From contig JAGVYA010000040.1 of assembly GCA_018303505.1 (NCBI GenBank), positions 6,809 through 70,808 on the forward strand: a stretch of DNA of 64,000 bases, read 5' to 3'. The notes beneath the pieces are model-generated. The model saw nothing but the letters and a program-made list of their open reading frames with translations, was not told the origin of the DNA and ran no database searches. Source of the DNA: Candidatus Woesearchaeota archaeon (GTDB lineage: Archaea; Nanobdellota; Nanobdellia; Woesearchaeales; GW2011-AR4). Shown here piece after piece: positions 5,392 to 58,819 of this stretch (position 1 is its first letter; every line of letters begins with the position of its first letter). Both the position numbers and the translations under genes were made by a program.

Positions 5392-6546
5392 TTGATTAAA
5401 AAGATTGCAGTAGCGACGGGTGGTGGAGACTGTGGCGGACTAAATGCAACAATAGAAGCTGTAGTGAAAACAGCAACCAACTGGGGCATTTCAGTTGATA
5501 GCTTTAAAAGAGGATGGGAGGGTTTTATATTTGATATGAGAAGACCTTTGAGACTTTCTGATGTGGAAGGAATTCACTCATTAACCGGCACTCTAGCTCA
5601 AACTTCGAGGACAAATCCTTATAATTTTACAGGTGAATTGGGTGGACGATTTTTTGAAAAGGCAGATGTATCAAGTCACGTGGTGGAAAACATAAAAAGA
5701 GAAGGGATAGATGGAGTAATTATGTGTGGTGGTGATGACACTCTTAGTGTAATCCCGAGGCTTATAGTAGATTATGGGGATTTTATACCTTTTGTCGGAA
5801 TACCAAAAACAATGGATGGCGATTTGCAGGTTTATAGTTTAGGCATTGATACTGCAATTAATAGGGCAAAACATGTACTTGAAGATTTTGTCCCGATATT
5901 GAAGGCTAATGGTAGTATAGGTTTTGTTGAAATTTTTGGTAGGGATGTCGGTAGAGTAACATTTAAAGCTGGTATCTCTGGAGGGGCAGATGTTATACTA
6001 ATACCTGAAATATCTATAGACTTGGAGTATACTCTTGATTTTATTGCAAAAAGATATGAGGAAAGAGCAAGAAATAATGATGGAACTTCCTATGTTTTAG
6101 TTGCAGTTGCGGAAGGAACAGGGCATCCAATAACAAGAAAGAGAGTATACCAGGACAAAAGTAAAGATAGTTTTGGTCATGGAAAATTAGGCGGAATTGG
6201 TGAGGTACTTGCTAAACTAGTTTATGATAGATTAAAAGATGATACTAGAATTAAAATGTATGTAAGAAATTTAGATATAAAAACACAGAGTCCAACATAC
6301 AATGTAAGGGGAGGTGCCACATTATACTCTGATTCATACATAGGTCAAAAATTAGGGGCAGCGGCTGTTCAGTATTTGTTAAATGGCGCAAAATCTGGAA
6401 TGGCTGTTGTAAATTTCGACGAATCAGGACAAGTTCGATTAATGCCTATTCCAGAGTTGGTTAAACCTAGGACAGTTCACATGGAAGTACTAAACTTATT
6501 TGAGAAATCTGGATTGTATTGTTTTGGAAGAAAACCCGGGAGGTGA
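5392..6546 (+). CDS. pfk: 6-phosphofructokinase (PFK-A family, ATP- or PPi-dependent)
   Basis: Motifs GGDCGGLNA, MCGGDDTLSV and IPKTMDGD are diagnostic for PfkA. It uses a TTG start preceded by an AGGAGG Shine-Dalgarno sequence. Confidence 0.8.
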   Translation: MIKKIAVATGGGDCGGLNATIEAVVKTATNWGISVDSFKRGWEGFIFDMRRPLRLSDVEGIHSLTGTLAQTSRTNPYNFTGELGGRFFEKADVSSHVVENIKREGIDGVIMCGGDDTLSVIPRLIVDYGDFIPFVGIPKTMDGDLQVYSLGIDTAINRAKHVLEDFVPILKANGSIGFVEIFGRDVGRVTFKAGISGGADVILIPEISIDLEYTLDFIAKRYEERARNNDGTSYVLVAVAEGTGHPITRKRVYQDKSKDSFGHGKLGGIGEVLAKLVYDRLKDDTRIKMYVRNLDIKTQSPTYNVRGGATLYSDSYIGQKLGAAAVQYLLNGAKSGMAVVNFDESGQVRLMPIPELVKPRTVHMEVLNLFEKSGLYCFGRKPGR

Positions 6547-10702: not shown

Positions 10703-10823
10703 ATACTCACGGACAAAAAATATTGAACAATTGTTGTCCATTCGTAATATGTCGGAAATTGCAAAAATGTATAATAAATTGTTACAATTTCCGAGCATGC
10801 TCAAAAATCTTTGATTTTTGACA
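10703..10823. repeat. Copy A of a conserved intergenic element of about 125 bp (two hairpins plus the GAGCATGCTC palindrome), upstream of fabI
   Basis: It shares TATACTCAC..., an exact 20-mer TTCGTAATATGTCGGAAATT and an exact 22-mer ATTTCCGAGCATGCTCAAAAAT with copy B at 52022-52160. Both hairpins carry compensatory substitutions between the copies. Confidence 0.7.
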
Positions 10824-10950
10824 AGCAAAAGACATTGATTTGACAATGCTTAAGCTTTCATTCAAATTCCAGCTTCTCAGTAAGATTTATAAAGCAAGAT
10901 TGTTTCTTCGACGTAATATAAAAAAAATAATATTTTGGAGTAATGACAAA

Positions 10951-12946: not shown

Positions 12947-13423
12947 TTAGATATCACCTAGTTTTTCTGCGGCTTTATCCCTTCTGTATGTGTATACTAT
13001 TGCTCCTCCACCAACACCTATAAACGCAGAAATAAAAAAAATCAAACCTTCCGGACTATCTAGTCTGGTGTTAGTTGGATATTGTTCAAGATCACCGTAT
13101 TCTTTTGCAATATCTTCTGCATACGGAAATGATGCTAGCGATTCTCTTTCGTTGGAAAGCTTGCGCAATCTTCTTTCCAATAAATTCCTAACAACTTGGG
13201 GATCTCTATATTTTGTATGTATTGCATTATGGGAATCAACTTCCTTAACTGTTTTTGAAAGCTCTTGTCGAACTTCATGTAGTCTGGCTATTCCAGGATT
13301 AGCATGTCTTATATTGCGAAGCCGAGCTTCATAAAATGACTCACCAATAATAATACCGCCGAGTCCACTTAATCCAAAAACCGCTACTCCTATTAGTGCA
13401 CTTTCAATTCTAGATAATGACAT
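12947..13423 (-). CDS. Membrane protein with two TM segments (N-terminal TM, coiled central segment, C-terminal GxxGG TM); paralogue of the next gene
   Basis: It has hydrophobic ends and a charged Arg/Glu-rich centre. The overlapping plus-strand ORF is Ser/Leu-rich antisense noise. Confidence 0.5.
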   Translation of the reverse strand: MSLSRIESALIGVAVFGLSGLGGIIIGESFYEARLRNIRHANPGIARLHEVRQELSKTVKEVDSHNAIHTKYRDPQVVRNLLERRLRKLSNERESLASFPYAEDIAKEYGDLEQYPTNTRLDSPEGLIFFISAFIGVGGGAIVYTYRRDKAAEKLGDI

Positions 13424-13498
13424 TTTATTGAATACAAGTAAACAAGGTCAATTTAAAAAGATTTGGTATTTCAATCTTGAGAAGTATAATTTAAACAA

Positions 13499-14020
13499 TT
13501 ATTTGGTTGAGTCTTCATCAGTTAAATGAAATTCGATAGTGCCCTCCTTCTTGGCTGGATTGCCTCCCGTAAGTAGCGCTCCTAACAAGCCAACAACAAA
13601 TGCGGCTCCGCTTACCCAAGTAATTTTATCATACATATCCTGTTGTCTAATTACGTTTCTAACTTCAACTCGCGACATTAATACCCTATATTCTCTAGCT
13701 AAATCAAGTTGATTGGTAGAATATTGATAAACTCTATCAGGTGATCCTCTGGCTTCGCCCTTTCTAAATAAATCAGAAATCTCTCTTGTCAATTTAGGAA
13801 TTTCAGCTTCTATTTTTTGCACTCTTCCAAGTACACGATTTGAATCATAAGGGGAGATATATGTGCCATAAACAACACCACCCAGTCCAATAAAACCTGC
13901 GGCTGCAACTGATAGCATAAACTTAGTATACATTCTCTGCCCAATGTTAAGTCCTTCTGCACTTATAGGTTTTTTCTTCCATATTAACCAACTTAGAAAT
14001 AGCAATTCTTTTAAAAACAT
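13499..14020 (-). CDS. Membrane protein with two TM segments; paralogue of 12947-13423
   Basis: Same TM-coil-TM architecture, in tandem on the same strand. Confidence 0.5.
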   Translation of the reverse strand: MFLKELLFLSWLIWKKKPISAEGLNIGQRMYTKFMLSVAAAGFIGLGGVVYGTYISPYDSNRVLGRVQKIEAEIPKLTREISDLFRKGEARGSPDRVYQYSTNQLDLAREYRVLMSRVEVRNVIRQQDMYDKITWVSGAAFVVGLLGALLTGGNPAKKEGTIEFHLTDEDSTK

Positions 14021-15056: not shown

Positions 15057-15404
15057 CCCCTTTTGGGCTAATTTGTTTTGCTTATGTAAAATTAAGGCAT
15101 ATATAAAGATTATTATTAAAAATTATAGATATTGTAGAATATATTGTGATATATAGATAAATTCTTTTTTATATAGTATATATGTTATATAGGTTAATTA
15201 TTTATATAAAAACCCAACATTTGTTGATAAGTGGGGTGATGATGTGCTAAAAAAAAGGCATTACAGCGATGAAGAAAGCGATGACGGCAATAACATCTAT
15301 TCAAAAAATGTCAGGGAATTATTGCTTGATGACGATGAATTAAGCCCAATGGAAGAGGCATTTATGAACGGTTATGAGGATGCCGTATAAAAAGGTGGTG
15401 GGAA

Positions 15405-15545
15405 GTGGCAAGATACGTTTGCATTAACTGCGGGACTTTTATTGTGAAAAGCGCGATAAGCGATCCTTACATGTGCAGGGACTGCGAGAGATTATTGGAA
15501 GGCACTGAAGGCAGGGAGAGGTATAATTATCTCGATAATTATTAA
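15405..15545 (+). CDS. Small zinc-ribbon protein (CxxC-x17-CxxC), about 46 aa, GTG start
   Basis: (V)ARYVCINCGTFIVKSAISDPYMCRDCERLLEGTEGRERYNYLDNY. Its stop overlaps the next ATG as taATGg. Confidence 0.35.
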   Translation: MARYVCINCGTFIVKSAISDPYMCRDCERLLEGTEGRERYNYLDNY

Positions 15546-15850
15546 TGGGGGTAAAAATGAAGCTGCACCAGCAGTTTGACTTGAATCTTAACGCTTTAAA
15601 AATAGATGATTTTAAGGATATACCTAAAGCAATAAATGAAATCCCGGTTTTAGTTGAAAAACTGATTAAGGATTTGCTGGAAGAAGGCTACATTGTTATT
15701 GAATCATCTGCTCGTTATATGGGAATCCCGAAAAGCATAACAGTTGTGAAGGATTTTACAGGCCCTTTTGTCACAAAGTTTTCTGCAAAGGTGCAAAATG
15801 ATTTTAATGCTCTTTCTAATACAATAGGTATTGAGAAATTGTTTGAATAA
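15545..15850 (+). CDS. Hypothetical protein (101 aa)
   Basis: ORF only. Confidence 0.4.
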   Translation: MGVKMKLHQQFDLNLNALKIDDFKDIPKAINEIPVLVEKLIKDLLEEGYIVIESSARYMGIPKSITVVKDFTGPFVTKFSAKVQNDFNALSNTIGIEKLFE

Positions 15851-15924
15851 TAGACGTGTCTAAAACCCTCAAATTCCGCCTTTTTAAGCCGTAAAAAGCC
15901 ATTCTAATTAGGAAAGATACATAA

Positions 15925-16668
15925 TTAATTTATTAACAAAACGTGACCAATTTTTTGTTGATATTCTTTTGCTACTACAATTATAGACCTGTGTATTTCT
16001 TTATCACAAGTAAAAAACCCCATAGTGCCTATATCTTGATTACAAGATAATATCTCAGCAGCTAATAAAATATCTTCGTAATCTTTCTTATTATCAAATA
16101 TCTTATATTTACTTTCTTTAATCTTTTGAATCCACTCTTCATAAGTATCATATTGCTCTATATTCATTACATAAAAACTATGGAAAAAGTGCAAAAATTT
16201 ATTTAAAATTTCTTCCGCTCTTTTTTCTGCTTCCACATTATACTTCTCTCTAAATTCACCAAAAACCCCATTATTTTCAAATAACTCAGGAATAGAATAT
16301 TCTGTTAAGAGTAGATTTATAAAATTTTTAACACCACCTATATTAAAAGTTATTTCTTCAGATTTTTCTTTAATAAATTTTTCAATCTGTTGGTGTATAT
16401 TCGCAGATAGTGCGAGAGTGCTTGGTTTATAAGTTTCTGAGGGAGATTTACTTCTTTTAGTTTTTTCTTCTCTAATAGCAATCTCAATTATTGCACAACA
16501 AGTGGTCAAATAATCTTTGTAAGTGTATATAAAAACATGTTTTACTCTTGCTAATAACACATAATCATTTCTTTTATTTTTAGCCATAAAAAGCCAAACT
16601 TTATTATGAAATAAATCATTAGAATTACCATAAGCAAAAATTGTATTTACGTCGGAAGACAACTTCAT
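15925..16668 (-). CDS. Hypothetical protein; the C-terminal approximately 60 aa resemble the last two strands of a PIN/nuclease fold
   Basis: ORF with DILLAAEIL...FFTCDKEIHRSIIV (T-x-D-k-d motif). The rest is unassigned. Confidence 0.4.
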   Translation of the reverse strand: MKLSSDVNTIFAYGNSNDLFHNKVWLFMAKNKRNDYVLLARVKHVFIYTYKDYLTTCCAIIEIAIREEKTKRSKSPSETYKPSTLALSANIHQQIEKFIKEKSEEITFNIGGVKNFINLLLTEYSIPELFENNGVFGEFREKYNVEAEKRAEEILNKFLHFFHSFYVMNIEQYDTYEEWIQKIKESKYKIFDNKKDYEDILLAAEILSCNQDIGTMGFFTCDKEIHRSIIVVAKEYQQKIGHVLLIN

Positions 16669-16671
16669 TTT

Positions 16672-17373
16672 TCAAACATTATAATTAGGTTTAAATCCCA
16701 GTTGGTATAACACAGATATTCGCTCTGATCCAAGAAGTTTAGCAAAATACTCAAATTTTTTATCTTTAGCTTTATCTAAATGCATAAATATGTATATAAT
16801 CCTTAATAAAAAGTATTCAATTGGAATTCTTGTTTCGTTAAACTTTAAGATAGTGAAAGATGATAACTTAATATCCTTATATTTATTATAAAGTTCTTTT
16901 GATTGTTCTTGTATGTATTTAAACACTAACATTATTTCATTAAGTAATTTAATTTCAGATATAGACATATCAGAAGTTTCATTATATTTAAGTGCATCAT
17001 AAAATTCTTTTGCAAATTTAGAATATTCCAACATAGAATCTACTAAAACTTTCCACCTAATTTCTTGAATATTTTTATTTGTTAGTTCCTCTACGCTACA
17101 TTTTCTTATTAATTCATCTGATATACCAAAAAGTTCATTTAATTTGTCAATATTTTTAAAAAATATCTTGAGATTCCATTGTTCTTCAGGCAGAGTTTTC
17201 ATGAATTCATTTAGCTTTTCAATGTCTATGTTCCTGCGCTTTAACTCATTAAGAACAAGCTTGGCATTAATAGAATGATCTTTCTCAATAAAAAGTTTGT
17301 CTAGATAAGTTCTGACCGTAGACATAAATTCTTCTACCTTACTTGAGAATTGGTCCGAATTAAGAGAATCCAT
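16672..17373 (-). CDS. Hypothetical alpha-helical protein (233 aa), co-oriented partner of 15925-16668
   Basis: ORF with a 4-nt gap to the downstream gene, so operon-like. Confidence 0.4.
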   Translation of the reverse strand: MDSLNSDQFSSKVEEFMSTVRTYLDKLFIEKDHSINAKLVLNELKRRNIDIEKLNEFMKTLPEEQWNLKIFFKNIDKLNELFGISDELIRKCSVEELTNKNIQEIRWKVLVDSMLEYSKFAKEFYDALKYNETSDMSISEIKLLNEIMLVFKYIQEQSKELYNKYKDIKLSSFTILKFNETRIPIEYFLLRIIYIFMHLDKAKDKKFEYFAKLLGSERISVLYQLGFKPNYNV

Positions 17374-18126
17374 GCATACCCCCTACACATTGGAAATACT
17401 TATCGATTTTTAAAGGTATAGGGTTGTAATAGAAAGACCATTTAATAACTTGAATTGATATCATAAGGTAACCTCTTTTCCTATATTTTTATATCTTGAA
17501 GTATTATATTTAAATATATTTCGTTTATTAGTGCTTTTTATCAAATCTCTGGTAAGTCAAATATAAACTCAATTTTTGCATTTGTGAACTACAAACAGTC
17601 ATCTTAAAAGGCTTAAATTCTGCCTTGTCAAAAATCATAGATTTTTGAGCATGTTCAAATTCTGCTGAATTGGTAAGTCTTGTGTAATTACTGCCCTTTA
17701 AAATGGCAGAATTTGCCCATTTTAACCCTTAAAAAGCCATTCTAGGAACGAAAGGTTTATATAGTTAGGCTCTCTAAAAATCATGGGTTTAAATACTATT
17801 TTATCGACTATAAATTTGGGGTTTTAATAATTTTCATATAAACCGAAATTAGACATAAAACTAGATGGATTATGTTGATTAAATAAATTAATGAGTTAAA
17901 ATAAAAAATAAATTAAATTTGCATTAAACAAATTAAAAATTATAAAAAAATAAACGAGAGCGACCTTTAGATTAACAAGTGAATAAGGTGACCCGCTTTT
18001 AATTTTTTTATTGAATACATAGGCGAGGCGTAAATTAATGGCAGACAATTTACGCCGAGCATTAAAATTTGTTGCCGAAGGCAACGGATTGAAGATAAAA
18101 GTAAATTAAATCAAATTAAAAGATAA

Positions 18127-20082
<1,956 letters not shown>

Positions 20083-22712: not shown

Positions 22713-23379
22713 TGAAAAAAATAATAGCCCAAGGTGCAGAAGCAAAATTATTCTTGGAAGATAATAAAATTATCAAAAATAGATTTTTAAAATCATACAG
22801 GATTAAGGAAATTGATGAAAGATTGAGGGGCTTCAGAACAAGGAGAGAAGCGCGAAGATACTGCAAAAATTAGAAGGAATAAATTTTCCAGCTCCAAAAT
22901 TAATCAATAACGATGAAAAAGAAAACTTACTGATTGAAAAGATTGATGGAAAATTAATTAAAGATATTCTTGAAAAAGCCGATTACGGAAAATTATGCGA
23001 AGAAATTGGAAGAAAAATAGCAATTTTGCACAACAACTCAATAATACACGGCGATTTAACAACATCAAATATGATATTAAACAAAGAAACGTCGATAAAT
23101 CGCAAAGCGATTTTCGATCGTGCTCGAAAATCTATGATTTTCGACATTTATTTTATTGACTTTGGGTTGTCGTTTTTTTCTGAAAAAGCTGAGGATAAAG
23201 CTGTTGATTTGCATCTATTAAAAGAAGGGCTTGAATCAAAGCACTACAGAATATGGGAAAAATGTTTTAAGTACGCTCTTGAGGCTTACAAAAAAGAAGC
23301 AAACAAAAGCAGTGAAACATTAAAACGGCTTGAAATTGTTGAAAAAAGGGGGAGATATCGTGCAAGGAAGGGAAGTTAA
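22713..23379 (+). pseudogene. bud32: KEOPS kinase Bud32 (Kae1-associated Ser/Thr kinase) with a 1-nt deletion frameshift near 22855
   Basis: The N-terminal part (MKKIIAQGAEAKLFLED...RTRREAR) is followed by a stop. The -1 frame continues KILQKLEGINFPAPKL...HGDLTTSNMIL...IDFGLS, with the catalytic loop and DFG motif. It may be an intact gene with a sequencing error. Confidence 0.65.
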
Positions 23380-27005: not shown

Positions 27006-27395
27006 TTATTTTATAAATTCTACATTTGGCAATTCATGAAAATGCGAGTCACCTGTAAGAAATCTTGCCTTATTTGCTATAGCAACCATATAACCTATGC
27101 AATCTATGTAGGATATTTTAATTTTTTTTGACCTTAAATTCTTTCTGAAAACCATTGATTTGCTGATAACATTAATGTCAAAATCAATTGCATATACGGA
27201 AAATTTTTTTAAATATAAGTCTGCTACTTCAAGATTAAAATTAGTAAGTAGGAAATAATGCAATTCCGCTAGATTGTATTTAGTTGTTATCAATACTTTA
27301 TCCAAGCAAGGTTCGTAATTTTTATTGCCTTTCACTATTTCTATCATTGCGTAAGTGTCCAAGAAAAAGTCCATTCTAGTCGAACCTGCTTTCAA
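27006..27395 (-). CDS. vapC: PIN-domain toxin VapC
   Basis: Motifs FFLDT, YIDCIGY and LTGDSHF. It overlaps the upstream antitoxin gene. Confidence 0.6.
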   Translation of the reverse strand: MKAGSTRMDFFLDTYAMIEIVKGNKNYEPCLDKVLITTKYNLAELHYFLLTNFNLEVADLYLKKFSVYAIDFDINVISKSMVFRKNLRSKKIKISYIDCIGYMVAIANKARFLTGDSHFHELPNVEFIK

Positions 27396-48320: not shown

Positions 48321-50531
48321 TTATTTAACTTGTATTATTCCGGAATATCCCAAGCCTTCAACTTTGTATTTGTTAGTTGTTGAATTGAGAGTACATTTGT
48401 AGAATCTTTTTGTGCTCCTGCCATTGCATCTAATTTTAAATTCCATTCTTTTATTGCATTTACTGCTTATGTTGCTTATTGACGGAATATTGTCATCTTT
48501 AATACAAAGTTTGTTTAGCGAAACATTAATCTTATCAACATACAAAGTTTTTCTCGTTCCTTCTGGCATTCTCAAGCCTCTGACAAAAAATGAGCCTTTT
48601 TGATTTGGCAATTGCTTATCAATTGTCAAATTTGTTAAATTCAACACATTCTTGGAAAAATTAAAATCAAATTCGATTATTGTCAAGTTTGCATCAAAAA
48701 ATCTAACTCTAAAACTTTCATTAAAAAACCTTGATAAATCACTTGAATTTCCAATAAATATTGTAAGATTAATTGTTGATGTATTTACAGATTTTTCATT
48801 GCCGATTAGCTTATCAATAATGTCATTAATTCCATCGTTATCTATATCATTTTCCGAAGCATTAAGAATGGTTATTTTGAAGACAAGAGAGTCACTAAGA
48901 AATCCGTCTGAAACAATGGCTTCTAAAACATATTCGCCACTGTCATTTGTTGTTGTATTCCATTGAAAAACATTAAAGCTATTTGAAAATTTTGAAAAGT
49001 TAATTGAAAAAGACAGTTCATCTTCATTTGGATCAGAGGCTGAAAGGTTTATTATTATCTTAGCTGTCTCGTTTATTGTAATATTATTAATTGGCTCTAA
49101 AGTTGGCTTTTTATTTAATTTTATTATAAGCCTTTCAGCATTATTGCTTTCGTTTAGCTCTTCTACAAAATCGTTTAAGTCAGCAATGGCTGTTATTTCA
49201 AAGTCAGAGAAATTAGTAAAATTAAATTTGTGGACTATTTGTGAGTTGACATTCAATAAATTGGATTTGTTTGTTTTTGTGAATGTGTTATTATCAAAAA
49301 TTTCTGCAAAAACATTGAATGCGTGCTTATTTCCTGTGTTTTTTATAATGACTTCAATTGATACATTGTTAATTCCATAATGATATTCGCCAGAAGCTGA
49401 AATATTAACAATCAAATCAGGCAAATTTGGCTTGTTAAAATCATTAAAATTATAGTTTCCAGTTATATAAGCATTATTTATTAAGTCCACTAAATTTCCA
49501 TTTTCAAAAAGTTTGGTATATTTCACAATAAAAGGCCCATTGAGCTTTTTGCCATATATCTTTGAGCCATTAATTAAAATTGAAAGGTTATTATCTCCAA
49601 ATGCTAAGAAAAAGGTTGTATTTTTTATCTCAACAATATTGTCGAATAAATCGTACAATCCTAGCAATATATTGTAATGATTGTCATTAAATATTTTGGC
49701 ATTTGCATTAATCTGAAGCAAATTGAACTCGTCGTCATTGTCTGTATCAATTCCTGTGTCTGAGAATTCGGATAAATAAGCTGTTTCGGCAAAATCCCTG
49801 AAATCGTAGAATGAAATCACTGCATTTATTTTGATTACCTTTTTGCCAATTTTTACAGAAGAAATATTAAAATTTCCAATATAGTGCGTTCTTTTTATTG
49901 TTTCATTGTCAAAATTAAATATTAAGTCTTGAATTGAATTTGTTATTGTTTTGTTTTCCTTAATAGAAATTATTGAATTGTTATAAGCTAAAAACAATAT
50001 TGTTTCAAAAGTTCCATTAATATACGAGTTTATAGTTACATTTACTTTTAACATTTTATCAACCTTTGAATCCTTGATGCTTAATATTTCAAATCCTTTT
50101 TCATAATTTGTGTATTCTTGTGTCAAGATATTGTCTTTTCTATATTTTAGACTGAAGCTCGAATTGTAAATTTTTACTGAGTAATTGAACTGATTTTGTG
50201 ATAAAAGTATGGTATTGAGCATTATATTCAATTTATTTATTCCGGCATTTAAAGTAACATTTGTTTCATTTGTTAAGATTCCATTTTTATCTAACAGATT
50301 AATTACAAAAATAAAAATGTCATCTGCATTGTTTGTTGTCAACTCAAAAACTAAAGTGTCGTTAATGCCATTGCTGTTTTTGTCAATCATGAAGTCTTTG
50401 AACTCAGTCACATTCATTTGCGGCGATGTTGCTGAGAAAGAGTATCTTGCTATTAAATCTTTAATCGAGAGGGAGTAAGCTACTGGAATTAGAAATAAAA
50501 CAACTAAAAATATTACCACCCCTTTGCTCAT
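48321..50531 (-). CDS. Large Asn-rich secreted or cell-surface protein (736 aa)
   Basis: Signal peptide, many N-x-S/T sequons and repeated beta-rich segments. Confidence 0.5.
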   Translation of the reverse strand: MSKGVVIFLVVLFLIPVAYSLSIKDLIARYSFSATSPQMNVTEFKDFMIDKNSNGINDTLVFELTTNNADDIFIFVINLLDKNGILTNETNVTLNAGINKLNIMLNTILLSQNQFNYSVKIYNSSFSLKYRKDNILTQEYTNYEKGFEILSIKDSKVDKMLKVNVTINSYINGTFETILFLAYNNSIISIKENKTITNSIQDLIFNFDNETIKRTHYIGNFNISSVKIGKKVIKINAVISFYDFRDFAETAYLSEFSDTGIDTDNDDEFNLLQINANAKIFNDNHYNILLGLYDLFDNIVEIKNTTFFLAFGDNNLSILINGSKIYGKKLNGPFIVKYTKLFENGNLVDLINNAYITGNYNFNDFNKPNLPDLIVNISASGEYHYGINNVSIEVIIKNTGNKHAFNVFAEIFDNNTFTKTNKSNLLNVNSQIVHKFNFTNFSDFEITAIADLNDFVEELNESNNAERLIIKLNKKPTLEPINNITINETAKIIINLSASDPNEDELSFSINFSKFSNSFNVFQWNTTTNDSGEYVLEAIVSDGFLSDSLVFKITILNASENDIDNDGINDIIDKLIGNEKSVNTSTINLTIFIGNSSDLSRFFNESFRVRFFDANLTIIEFDFNFSKNVLNLTNLTIDKQLPNQKGSFFVRGLRMPEGTRKTLYVDKINVSLNKLCIKDDNIPSISNISSKCNKRMEFKIRCNGRSTKRFYKCTLNSTTNKYKVEGLGYSGIIQVK

Positions 50532-52021: not shown

Positions 52022-52160
52022 TATACTCACCCACAAAAATTATTGGGTATTGTTATGGGTTCGTAATATGTCGGAAATTTTTATTATTCATTAATTTTGC
52101 AAAAATTTCCGAGCATGCTCAAAAATTCCATCATGTATTCGTAAATTGGAATTTTTGACA
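52022..52160. repeat. Copy B of the conserved intergenic element, upstream of polB, followed by the odd palindrome TTGACAGTCAA
   Basis: See copy A at 10703-10823. Exact 20-mer and 22-mer matches, plus covarying hairpins. Confidence 0.7.
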
Positions 52161-58420: not shown

Positions 58421-58819
58421 CTAATAACTTTCAACCTTAATTCCTTTTATTCTTTGGAAATGTTCTTTATCTCGAGTTATAATTTTATTGCAATTGTTGG
58501 ACAACATTGCCCCTGCAATTAAGCAGTCATGAGTTTCTATTTCTACGCCTTTTTTAACCAAATCGCTAGCTATTTGTGATGCTCTAACTGAAGAATCATA
58601 ATCAAGATTTAATATATTCAAATTACTTATAAATTTCATTAAACCTTCTAATTCGTTGTCATAACTTGCTTGCTTTTTTCTTAGTACACCAAATAATATT
58701 TCAAATATGTTCACAGTTGTTGTTGCAAGTTGCTCATTCTTTACTTTATCGCAAGCTTCAATAGCTTCTGGTTTATTCTTAAGAAAATCGATAACAAGTG
58801 TGCTGTCCAAGCAAATCAC
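58421..58819 (-). CDS. vapC: PIN-domain toxin VapC
   Basis: Motifs ICLDSTLVIDFL, HDCLIAGA and ITRDKEHF. It overlaps the upstream gene by 4 nt. Confidence 0.6.
   Translation of the reverse strand: MICLDSTLVIDFLKNKPEAIEACDKVKNEQLATTTVNIFEILFGVLRKKQASYDNELEGLMKFISNLNILNLDYDSSVRASQIASDLVKKGVEIETHDCLIAGAMLSNNCNKIITRDKEHFQRIKGIKVESY

Follow-up and report, generated by a model that had tools for sequence, protein, structure and literature searches.

An AT-rich two-gene insertion upstream of gyrB in a Woesearchaeota archaeon encodes a predicted PIN-fold protein and an orphan helical partner

A segment of 1838 bp (15907-17744) in the window, the whole 64-kb stretch of Woesearchaeota (DPANN) DNA that was analysed, is best explained as horizontally acquired DNA inserted just upstream of the gyrB promoter. 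It carries two genes, A and B, of a previously undescribed family, and the insertion itself is an ordinary kind of event. Taken as a whole, we consider it probable that A and B form a toxin-antitoxin-like cassette which entered by homology-driven integration (features are listed in Table 1). Gene A (25.9% GC) and gene B (26.3% GC) are the two lowest in GC of the 51 ORFs in the window (mean 35.4%, sd 3.5), and the island is its lowest-GC 1.8-kb stretch, in agreement with an earlier sequence-only reading, which had described the region as poorer in GC than its flanks. The longest ORF of the 780-bp spacer ahead of gyrB is at most 62 aa. Rfam reported no non-coding RNA in the spacer at gathering threshold; in E-value mode the sole match, to a C/D snoRNA model, scored 20 bits where the cutoff is 44 bits. 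No tRNA gene was found near the insertion site. The similarity between the filler (17374-17603) and the extra spacer of one related locus (L020) was attributed to chance, since 64 of 500 shuffles scored equal or higher, and a scan of the region for sigma-70 promoters and terminators was uninformative, the host being an archaeon.

Table 1. Features of the occupied site and its native flanks (window coordinates)
Feature	Position	Strand	Remark
p101, conserved small gene, left native flank	15545..15850	+	Neighbour of gyrB/PhoU in related loci
Left copy of native gyrB-upstream element, uninterrupted "short type"	15860..15906	+	3' end is the perfect 15-mer 15892-15906
Left end of island	15907..15924	.	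Weak likeness to the BRE/TATA region that natively follows the element
Gene B, divergent PIN/VapC-fold putative nuclease, 247 aa	15925..16668	-	Helical insert of ~120 aa (residues ~40-160)
Gene A, orphan all-helical protein, 233 aa	16672..17373	-	Always immediately upstream of B
Archaeal TATA-like promoter of the cassette (ACCTTTAAAAATCG)	17404..17417	-	~37 nt upstream of A ATG; read from sequence
Non-coding filler within island	17425..17602	.	No significant similarity to fetched loci or elsewhere in the window
Right copy of element, first half (CTTAAAAGGCTTAAATTCTGCC)	17603..17624	+	17/21 positions as in 15860-15880
Nested palindromic mini-element, 94 nt, splitting the right copy	17625..17718	.	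Hairpin CAAAAATCATAGATTTTTG at 17629-17647
Right copy of element, second half	17719..17744	+	23/26 positions as in 15881-15906; 3' end is the perfect 15-mer 17730-17744
Native BRE/TATA-like box GGAACGAAAGGTTTATATAG, right native flank	17745..17764	+	Follows the element; conserved in all aligned relatives
gyrB, right native flank	18154..20082	+	Pfam HATPase_c, DNA_gyraseB, Toprim; synteny with relatives

The insertion is documented by sites that lack it. At least 11 related Woesearchaeota species have the gene order S3Ae-gyrB-p101-PhoU with one repeat copy and without the gene pair. In 14 related loci p101 adjoins PhoU, with gyrB directly beside p101 in at least 11 of them, and none of the 14 encodes A or B. 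The p101-gyrB spacers of the relatives hold a single copy, which ends in AAATTCTGCCnTTTTAAGCCTTAAAAAGCCATTCTA and is followed by GGAACGAAAGGTTTATATAG. Within the species, one contig (L044) matches over 710 nt at 99.7% identity, after which CATTCTA leads straight into GGAACGAAA, an empty site in which p101, one repeat copy and the gyrB promoter are joined directly. L044 and four further contigs (L015, L016, L042, L043) come from groundwater metagenomes, among them SAMN03842443 and SAMN03842431. This same-species empty site comes from a single contig of 719 nt, ending 9 nt beyond the junction; its element differs from both copies in the window, and it is therefore not an assembly jump. An exact look-up of gyrB found no long island-free contig. 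In the occupied site, the 3' end of p101 and the gyrB promoter stay intact. The sequence-only reading had taken the cassette for an insertion and proposed the search for empty sites as its check, and the single-copy sites in relatives and in the same-species contig bear it out. Two observations had been named as counting against an insertion, namely relatives with the same two genes in a conserved context without repeats, and a 15-mer that is merely a common word. Both were looked for and neither was found: allowing up to two mismatches, the 15-mer occurs once per relative locus, always upstream of gyrB, in the 248 kb searched. A candidate second insertion site beside ribosomal proteins (L008) was treated as a chimera, only 396 nt matching the window and the contig having 1.2x coverage. 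The apparent flanking repeats of extra ORF-bearing segments in two loci (L035, L030) were not significant.

The 15-mer in question, TAAAAAGCCATTCTA, is perfect at both ends of the island (15892-15906 and 17730-17744) and has no other exact copy in the 64-kb window, so that the direct repeat reported before around two co-oriented minus-strand genes is present exactly where it had been placed. The repeat pair extends to 52 nt at 75% identity (15872-15923 vs 17710-17761), and local alignment of the two flanks gave z = 8.9 against shuffles. Around the 15-nt core, 14/20 positions agree upstream and 10/17 downstream; the imperfect similarity had been put at about 20 bp, but the duplicated segment is longer and comprises a whole native element of ~47 nt. 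This element (15860-15906) recurs on the right in split form (17603-17624 and 17719-17744). Its left copy matches the single copies of three relatives (L021, L033, L027) and of the same-species contig L044 base for base as far as CATTCTA, and then diverges. In another relative (L022), where the island is absent, the native spacer begins collinearly with the first half of the right copy, and the mini-element, whose inverted ends lie at 17604-17632 vs 17697-17725, is homologous to and collinear with that same spacer (BLAST E = 8e-9). Hairpins related to that of the mini-element were also seen at 10786-10825, 23113-23146 and ~52100-52140 of the window. Copies of AAATTCTGC(C) occur at 17615, 17657 and 17705 (the last on the minus strand); the three spacer half-sites noted previously are all present, but as parts of the composite structure of native element and mini-element rather than as independent sites. 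Identity to the relatives is 88-98% from 17717 on. The GGAACGAAAGGTTTATATAG box may act as a promoter, to judge from the archaeal consensus. The left end of the island agrees with the right flank at 10/17 positions and, weakly, with ATAACGAAAGGTTTATATA of L022 at 12/18, which might hint at a resemblance to the native BRE/TATA region. The two repeats represent diverged alleles of one conserved native element (at least 47 nt), and the mini-element interrupts one of the two.

Genes A and B were found as a unit throughout. In the window, 3 nt separate the A stop codon from the B ATG (a trivial correction of the 4 nt given earlier), elsewhere the spacing ranges from -11 to +4 nt, and no locus examined, not even the most distant, has the two genes apart. 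A BRE/TATA-like box is predicted 35-45 nt upstream of A in every pair-bearing locus, and a putative GGGGGT ribosome-binding site follows the ACCTTTAAAAATCG box of the window. The distribution of the pair is sporadic. Nine other loci carry it, the GC content of the pair is below that of the rest of the contig in all nine, and its neighbourhood is different in every one. Repeats flanking the pair are absent from all eight loci whose flanks are usable; the ninth (L003), with 249 nt of upstream flank, is uninformative on this point. The neighbours are housekeeping genes in the window and in most other loci. What had been called a candidate defence island is here a lone insertion among such genes. 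Only L010, a distant copy, has Fic, RHH-PIN_2, ParE, HD and DUF2283 genes around it. The comparison with defence-system models that had been suggested gave no match, the PADLOC-DB 2.0 models returning zero families for A and zero for B (E <= 1), and neither protein matched PHROGs or NCBIfam. A viral origin of the cassette was considered and rejected, with no relative of B in IMG/VR viral contigs and no PHROG match.

Gene B had been singled out for a PIN-like T-x-D-K-E motif, which is indeed present (FFTCDKE, residues 218-224). Its AF2 model (pLDDT 81.6; strands 2-4, 35-38, 164-167, 217-220 and 243-245) has the three-layer alpha/beta/alpha architecture of the PIN fold, with a parallel beta-sheet core of ~130 residues, and on this model B is a PIN-fold protein. 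No variation was seen among 10 sequences at D6 (SDVN), at D196 and D199, which open helix 197-212, or at D222 (TCDK), which follows strand 217-220; E198 is nearly invariant. Placed by predicted secondary structure and not by superposition, the invariant acids fall at the PIN-defining positions, after strand S1, at the N-terminus of helix H4 and after strand S4. The PIN motifs are all kept in the most distant pair (L040). In VapC-like PIN proteins, the fourth acidic residue is a Glu in the helical insert after S2; candidates for it in B are positions 62 and 67 (E/D62 and E/D67, acidic in 10/10 sequences) and the invariant E141 and E148. B and 10 homologues matched no Pfam, NCBIfam or PDB-sequence entry and no PIN HMM (PF01850 and relatives), while the two canonical PIN genes of the window do match PF01850. 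Two attempts to link B to PIN proteins by sequence were discarded: a PDB-sequence profile search gave only a sub-threshold match (E 0.09) of the insert to SCAF8 CID domains, and hhalign of B against the window's own PIN protein aligned the T-x-D motif alone. Three classes of B frameshift alleles occur in same-species contigs from several samples, from which B might perhaps be toxic or dispensable. For gene A, the AF2 model (pLDDT 75) has a conserved four-helix C-terminal domain and fold matches to generic helical bundles only. A matched no domain family, a DNA-binding domain was not detected, and its family has 20 representatives in 1.84 billion proteins.

Given the PIN fold of B, a toxin- or effector-type cargo is a reasonable reading. 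This part of the earlier proposal stands, though PADLOC has no match and the function is one that we infer. The cargo would be a self-contained operon, A followed by B under its own TATA-type promoter, and the pair would act in the manner of a VapBC-type toxin-antitoxin or an abortive-infection module. For B, a metal-dependent ribonuclease activity is proposed, with D6, D199 (or D196/E198), D222 and one acid of the insert as putative catalytic residues; this activity would be toxic to the cell and neutralised by A, the presumed cognate inhibitor or regulator. Modules of this kind are maintained because their loss is costly or because they block viruses. It is doubtful, though conceivable, that the pair is instead a dedicated anti-virus defence or RNA-processing system, with A as sensor or scaffold and B as an effector nuclease activated on infection. 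The size of A (233 aa) and its four-helix C-terminal domain, unlike short labile antitoxins, would suit such a system, as would the large conserved cap-like insert in B, the company of the L010 copy and a sporadic, AT-rich distribution that is typical of defence genes. However, PADLOC is silent, the neighbours are housekeeping genes in the window and most other loci, and PHROGs and IMG/VR gave no viral or anti-defence association. Only tentatively can one go further and suppose that A-B is an unrecognised two-component anti-virus or conflict system, to date seen only in DPANN archaea and different from a conventional VapBC, in which A senses or gates a capped PIN nuclease B, and that the cassette might spread into conserved promoter-upstream elements without a recombinase of its own.

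As for the route of entry, no integrase or transposase family was recorded in the ~10 kb to the left and right, nor among 30 additional window ORFs, for those ORFs that have Pfam data, and homology-driven (Campbell-type) integration appears to fit best. On this view, a "long type" version of the gyrB-upstream element, already diverged, would have come in with the foreign DNA and recombined with the "short type" version on the chromosome. A Campbell-type single crossover of this kind, resolved within the 15 nt that the two versions share, would place one copy at either end of the insert, with the 3' end of p101 and the gyrB promoter undamaged. Such a route would require a circular or otherwise recombinogenic donor with a copy of the target; no donor was found. 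As the other pair-bearing loci lack flanking repeats, the cassette does not enter by this route in general. It is also conceivable that an integrase encoded outside the 64-kb window acted in trans. The sequence-only reading had assumed cargo brought in by an integrase or transposase that was later lost. On an integrase model of this kind, a larger integrative element encoding a tyrosine or serine integrase would have inserted by site-specific recombination at a 15-bp att core and then decayed to a two-gene addiction module between attL and attR. A 15-nt core that is perfect, bordered left and right by imperfect similarity, is the pattern expected of attL/attR, the empty sites hold one copy and the neighbour-gene signals are preserved, as in archaeal integrative elements with att duplications, and the island contains ~290 nt of unassigned non-coding DNA. 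Toxin-antitoxin modules are also typical survivors of decayed elements, and a cargo of that type would fit. By site-specific recombination, the excised circle would join CCCATTTTAACCCTTAAAAAGCCATTCTA to ATTAGGAAAGATAC. Yet no integrase was recorded within ~10 kb or in the 30 additional window ORFs, the island is only 1.8 kb, its target is not a tRNA gene, and the repeats are two native regulatory-region alleles rather than an element-specific attP. Moreover, the right "arm" is a native long-type spacer that is present in the island-free L022, att-like repeats occur in 0/8 other loci with usable flanks, and nothing related to B is found in IMG/VR viral contigs, so that we regard this model as unlikely. 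Direct repeats around a small cargo without a mobility gene could also be read as a target-site duplication, as had been suggested, left by a transposase that mobilised a non-autonomous element in trans. This is very improbable: the duplication spans at least 47 nt, its copies are diverged native alleles and not the product of a staggered cut, and the nested mini-element in one of them is native at the same place in L022. Unlike an IS element or transposon, the island has no terminal inverted repeats and no transposase was found in the window, and other copies of the pair have no flanking repeats. Equally hard to credit is that the pair was ancestral at the locus and was deleted in all relatives, the repeats stemming from an unrelated local duplication. 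Recombination between two direct repeats would indeed delete the pair cleanly and give the observed empty site, but at least 11 species would need independent or early loss of a pair whose GC content is 9 points below that of the host, whose family is extremely rare, and whose homologues have unrelated surroundings in other DPANN archaea.

DPANN archaea live in dependence on host cells and have very small genomes; to our knowledge, their conflict and defence systems are almost unstudied. Here a foreign cassette is seen cleanly in nature, one population having both occupied and apparently empty alleles, and the locus adds a PIN subfamily that sequence models fail to detect and a partner without known relatives. 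If A-B is a toxin-antitoxin or defence module, it would represent a new architecture in the PIN toxin repertoire and a test case of how small cassettes enter archaeal chromosomes without a recombinase of their own. If it is only a selfish addiction module, the case would be an ordinary event documented in detail.

Compared with VapBC and FitAB, B shares the invariant Asp residues after S1, at the H4 N-terminus and after S4, and the module is likewise a two-gene operon with the partner upstream at 3 nt, a tightly coupled unit that is sporadic, horizontally mobile and AT-rich. However, B escapes the PIN HMMs and has about twice the usual length, with its helical insert placed after S2. A VapB antitoxin is small (~70-100 aa) with an N-terminal DNA-binding domain, whereas A is all-helical and 3x longer than a typical VapB, and none of the DNA-binding domains AbrB, RHH, HTH or PhD was detected in it. 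In some PIN-like domains strand S2 is followed by a long helical insert, as in DUF4935 (PF16289) and other families of the VapC group (Matelska et al., 2017, PMC5499597). The insert of B is predicted at the same position, a likeness of architecture only, and none of 10 B-family members matched PF16289 or any other Pfam family (E <= 1). B also resembles PcrIIC1 (8wmm_G), the PIN-like partner of CbCas9, but in fold only, with 14% identity, and the window shows no Cas9 or CRISPR context.

A foreign, self-promoted operon of two genes, A (a helical protein) and B (a PIN-fold protein), sits upstream of the gyrB promoter, with one of two alleles of a native element on each side. By its gene content the window is ordinary chromosome, with genes for purine-synthesis enzymes, phosphofructokinase, FttA, a proteasome subunit, ProRS, PolB and IleRS, and S3Ae, gyrB, an AbrB-PhoU protein and an AIRS-family enzyme lie around the A-B island. 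Protein A has the same sequence as NCBI J4448_05030 from a Candidatus Woesearchaeota archaeon. The sequence-only reading had described a 15-bp repeat bracketing two co-oriented minus-strand genes, and this was borne out: the 15-mer TAAAAAGCCATTCTA has exact matches in the 64-kb window only at 15892-15906 and 17730-17744. Taken over 52 nt, the two repeats are 75% identical, and the flanks of the gene pair aligned to each other with z = 8.9 against shuffled flanks. The ORFs are spaced by 3 nt, not by 4 as first counted. The region is indeed AT-richer than its surroundings: A (25.9% GC) and B (26.3%) are the bottom two among 51 ORFs (mean 35.4%, sd 3.5), and no other 1.8-kb stretch of the window has a GC content as low as that of the island. 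The AAATTCTGC(C) half-sites described in the spacer are also real and clustered (Table).

Scanning species-representative genomes with the PhoU-like neighbour gave 18 related loci. tblastn revealed the gene order S3Ae-gyrB-p101-PhoU-AIRS in these relatives (p101 being the conserved small gene left of the insertion site), with gyrB directly adjoining p101 in at least 11 of the 18, and neither A nor B was encoded in any of these loci. Their p101-gyrB spacers carry one copy of a strongly conserved ...AAAACCCTnAAATTCTGCCnTTTTAAGCCTTAAAAAGCCATTCTA|GGAACGAAAGGTTTATATAG..., whose GGAACGAAAGGTTTATATAG part is an archaeal BRE/TATA-like box. The synteny comparison proposed earlier thus recovered empty sites, with a single block copy and no A or B. 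In the window, the left copy tracks the sequence of the relatives as far as CATTCTA, beginning at the p101 stop codon, and then departs; the right copy matches them at 88-98% identity from about 17717 on. Allowing up to 2 mismatches, the 15-mer was found once per locus in 11 relatives, always upstream of gyrB (248 kb, 18 relatives); it is a locus-specific element, and its being a common genomic word, the other concern raised beforehand, was ruled out. Furthermore, an exact look-up of the p101 protein found a 719-nt contig (L044) from a different sample within the same aquifer project, which matches 15197-15906 at 99.7% identity and goes on to read GGAACGAAA, the window sequence at 17745. L044, a single contig that ends 9 nt past the junction, represents an empty site within the species. 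Its element (…TTTTTACGCCTTAAAAAG…) is unlike either window copy, a difference that speaks against an assembly jump from one copy to the other. All long contigs with the exact gyrB contain the island.

The right-hand repeat is a composite of three parts, two half-copies separated by a nested palindromic mini-element, and 17603-17744 is collinear with the whole native p101-to-promoter spacer of the relative L022, which lacks the island (BLAST E = 8e-9). The left copy is of the uninterrupted short type, as in L044 and the relatives L021, L033 and L027. Thus at least 47 nt of the native element lie on both sides of the island as two diverged alleles, identical to each other over 15 nt at the end nearer the promoter; the 18 nt that follow the left core bear a weak resemblance to the promoter box.

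Coordinates of features in the window and in other loci
Feature	Contig	Position	Remark
Gene A	window	16672-17373 (-)	233-aa ORF
Gene B	window	15925-16668 (-)	247-aa ORF
Right copy, first half	window	17603-17624	17/21 positions match 15860-15880
Nested palindromic mini-element	window	17625-17718	94 nt; inverted ends, hairpin CAAAAATCATAGATTTTTG
Right copy, second half	window	17719-17744	23/26 positions match 15881-15906
AAATTCTGC(C) copies	window	17615; 17657; 17705(-)
Palindromic mini-element family	window	10786-10825; 23113-23146; ~52100-52140; 17625-17661
Conserved ~110-nt block	window	17745-17850	also in L020-L035
Canonical PIN-domain genes	window	27006-27395 (-); 58421-58819 (-)	PF01850, E 1e-6 and 4e-14; GC 29-31%
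ORF with CARDB domain	window	48321-50531 (-)	736 aa; 28% GC
Two small membrane-like genes	window	12947-14020	158 and 173 aa
gyrB interruption	L024; L025; L035	2769-3950; 6581-7807; 3878-5092
Extra spacer segments	L030; L035	6414-7147; 6452-7232	~360-430 nt
GC-rich hairpin inserts	L021; L035; L022	~5700-5740;; ~300-470	window orientation
Pair neighbourhood	L010	3643-20303	RHH_12 and PIN_2, two Fic, ParE toxin, HD, DUF2283, deaminase
Pair neighbourhood			helicase, Dus, CSD genes
Pair neighbourhood			DoxX, esterase, methyltransferase
Pair neighbourhood			glycogen-phosphorylase-like gene
Pair neighbourhood			DsbA
Pair neighbourhood			Hef, TraB genes
B allele	L015		29-nt tandem duplication just after D222 motif
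B allele	L042		1-nt insertion at ~residue 206
B alleles	L016; L043		29-nt duplication plus 1-nt insertion
Segment absent from window	L048	518-550	33 nt
Segment identical to window	L008	2305-2700	396 nt; window 16376-16771

The most economical reading is that homology-driven recombination between element copies brought the island in: the copy on the incoming DNA would have recombined with the chromosomal one, through a Campbell-type single crossover or through homology-anchored integration, with the exchange resolved inside the identical 15 nt. The sequence-only reading had likened the repeats to target-site duplications around cargo inserted by an integrase or transposase since lost. A transposon-type duplication did not hold: a staggered transposase cut does not yield diverged alleles of a native element spanning at least 47 nt, and terminal inverted repeats are absent from the island. 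Alternatively, an integrase acting in trans might have carried out site-specific recombination, or the island might be a decayed integrase-borne element; the families recorded within ~10 kb and for 30 further window ORFs include no integrase or transposase, and none of the eight other pair-bearing loci with usable flanks has flanking repeats (the ninth, L003, has too little upstream sequence). That the pair is ancestral and was lost in other lineages is very unlikely, given the empty sites and the low GC of A and B. As an event the insertion is ordinary biology, here recorded unusually cleanly. Whichever route was taken, the duplication keeps the p101 3' region intact as well as an element-plus-promoter unit ahead of gyrB, which may explain why insertion is tolerated at this position.

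The A-B pair is inherited together and moves between genomes. B directly follows A in every locus examined, and even beside the most distant A relative the neighbour gene matches the B profile (hhalign probability 99.8%). A BRE/TATA-like box lies 35-45 nt upstream of A in each copy. The neighbourhoods of the pair all differ between loci (Table), and its GC is below that of its own contig in 9/9 other loci, by 2.5 to 14.8 points. On the 318-kb Nanoarchaeota scaffold L010, the stretch holding the pair is dense in conflict-type genes. The families are small (26 clusters for B among 5.8 billion sequences, 20 representatives for A among 1.84 billion), and the only names attached to them are hypothetical proteins of Woesearchaeota or Nanoarchaeota archaea. 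The module is known from metagenomic contigs only, and its few named members are DPANN archaea. We found no relative in IMG/VR and no match for A or B in Pfam, NCBIfam, PHROGs or PADLOC; 10 B homologues and 8 distant A relatives likewise gave no consistent Pfam match.

In its structural model B adopts a PIN fold and it keeps the catalytic Asp residues, so the earlier PIN-like guess holds at the fold level. D6 (SDVN), D196, D199 and D222 (T-C-D-K-E) at PIN-defining positions are invariant and E198 nearly so, and a ~120-aa helical insert after S2 bears conserved acidic residues (E/D62, E/D67, E141, E148), which are candidates for the fourth catalytic residue. By sequence B matches no curated PIN family, whereas the two canonical PIN genes of the window do, indicating that the genome also has ordinary VapC-like genes. 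The model of A (pLDDT 75) has disordered residues 1-35 and four long helices bundled at the C terminus, and its fold matches are generic or designed helical bundles only. We infer that B would be a metal-dependent ribonuclease restrained by A, the two acting as an addiction or abortive-infection module; a sensor-effector defence system is a less likely alternative. The pair would work like VapBC/FitAB, but it does not belong there, as B matches no PIN HMM and A is not a small DNA-binding antitoxin. It is best filed among the PIN toxin-type two-gene modules, as a variant.

Disrupted B alleles occur among same-species contigs (Table) alongside intact ones. Such null alleles would be expected if B were costly or dispensable, and may hint, weakly and indirectly, at a toxin role. 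Another same-species contig, L048, matches the window across the left junction to 15971 and then has 33 nt absent from it, being either another B-disrupting allele or a chimera. The 3.2-kb contig L008 (1.2x coverage) carries its window-identical segment beside the ribosomal protein genes S19 and L22, with no window match in the remainder, and is most likely an assembly chimera.

Several smaller observations concern the gyrB region and the rest of the window. Intergenic palindromic mini-elements share the core (T)GTCAAAAATC-nnn-GATTTTTGAGCATG(C/T)TC, some with GGAAATT / AATTTCC arms, and in both the window and L022 a copy sits nested within the gyrB-upstream element; they may be REP/MITE-like elements or regulator binding sites. 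Between the BRE/TATA-like box and gyrB there is a strongly conserved non-coding block (...CTAAAAA...TTTATCGACGAnAAA...GGTTTTAATnnTTTTCATA...AATTAGnCATAAAACTA), leading directly into the gyrB ATG in L026 and L027. It has no Rfam match and could be a leader or second promoter. Extra segments between p101 and the conserved element in L030 and L035, at least the latter bearing an ORF, indicate that the p101-gyrB spacer is a recurrent insertion site; no flanking repeats were detectable around them. GC-rich hairpin-forming inserts (…GTGCGAGAACGCTC…GCTCGC…) in the otherwise AT-rich gyrB-upstream region of three relatives, in L022 inside the mini-element, may be a small GC-rich mobile repeat. In three relatives gyrB is split near residue 430-450 by ~1.2 kb, with the flanking parts in frame, by what looks like an intein, absent from the window gyrB. 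The CARDB ORF, the second lowest-GC stretch of the window, may likewise encode a surface protein that was acquired or is evolving fast. No relative has a counterpart of the two membrane-like genes that lie in the PhoU-AIRS interval, and this interval varies from 7 nt to ~6 kb (L033) across relatives, making it a second variable spot beside the studied site.
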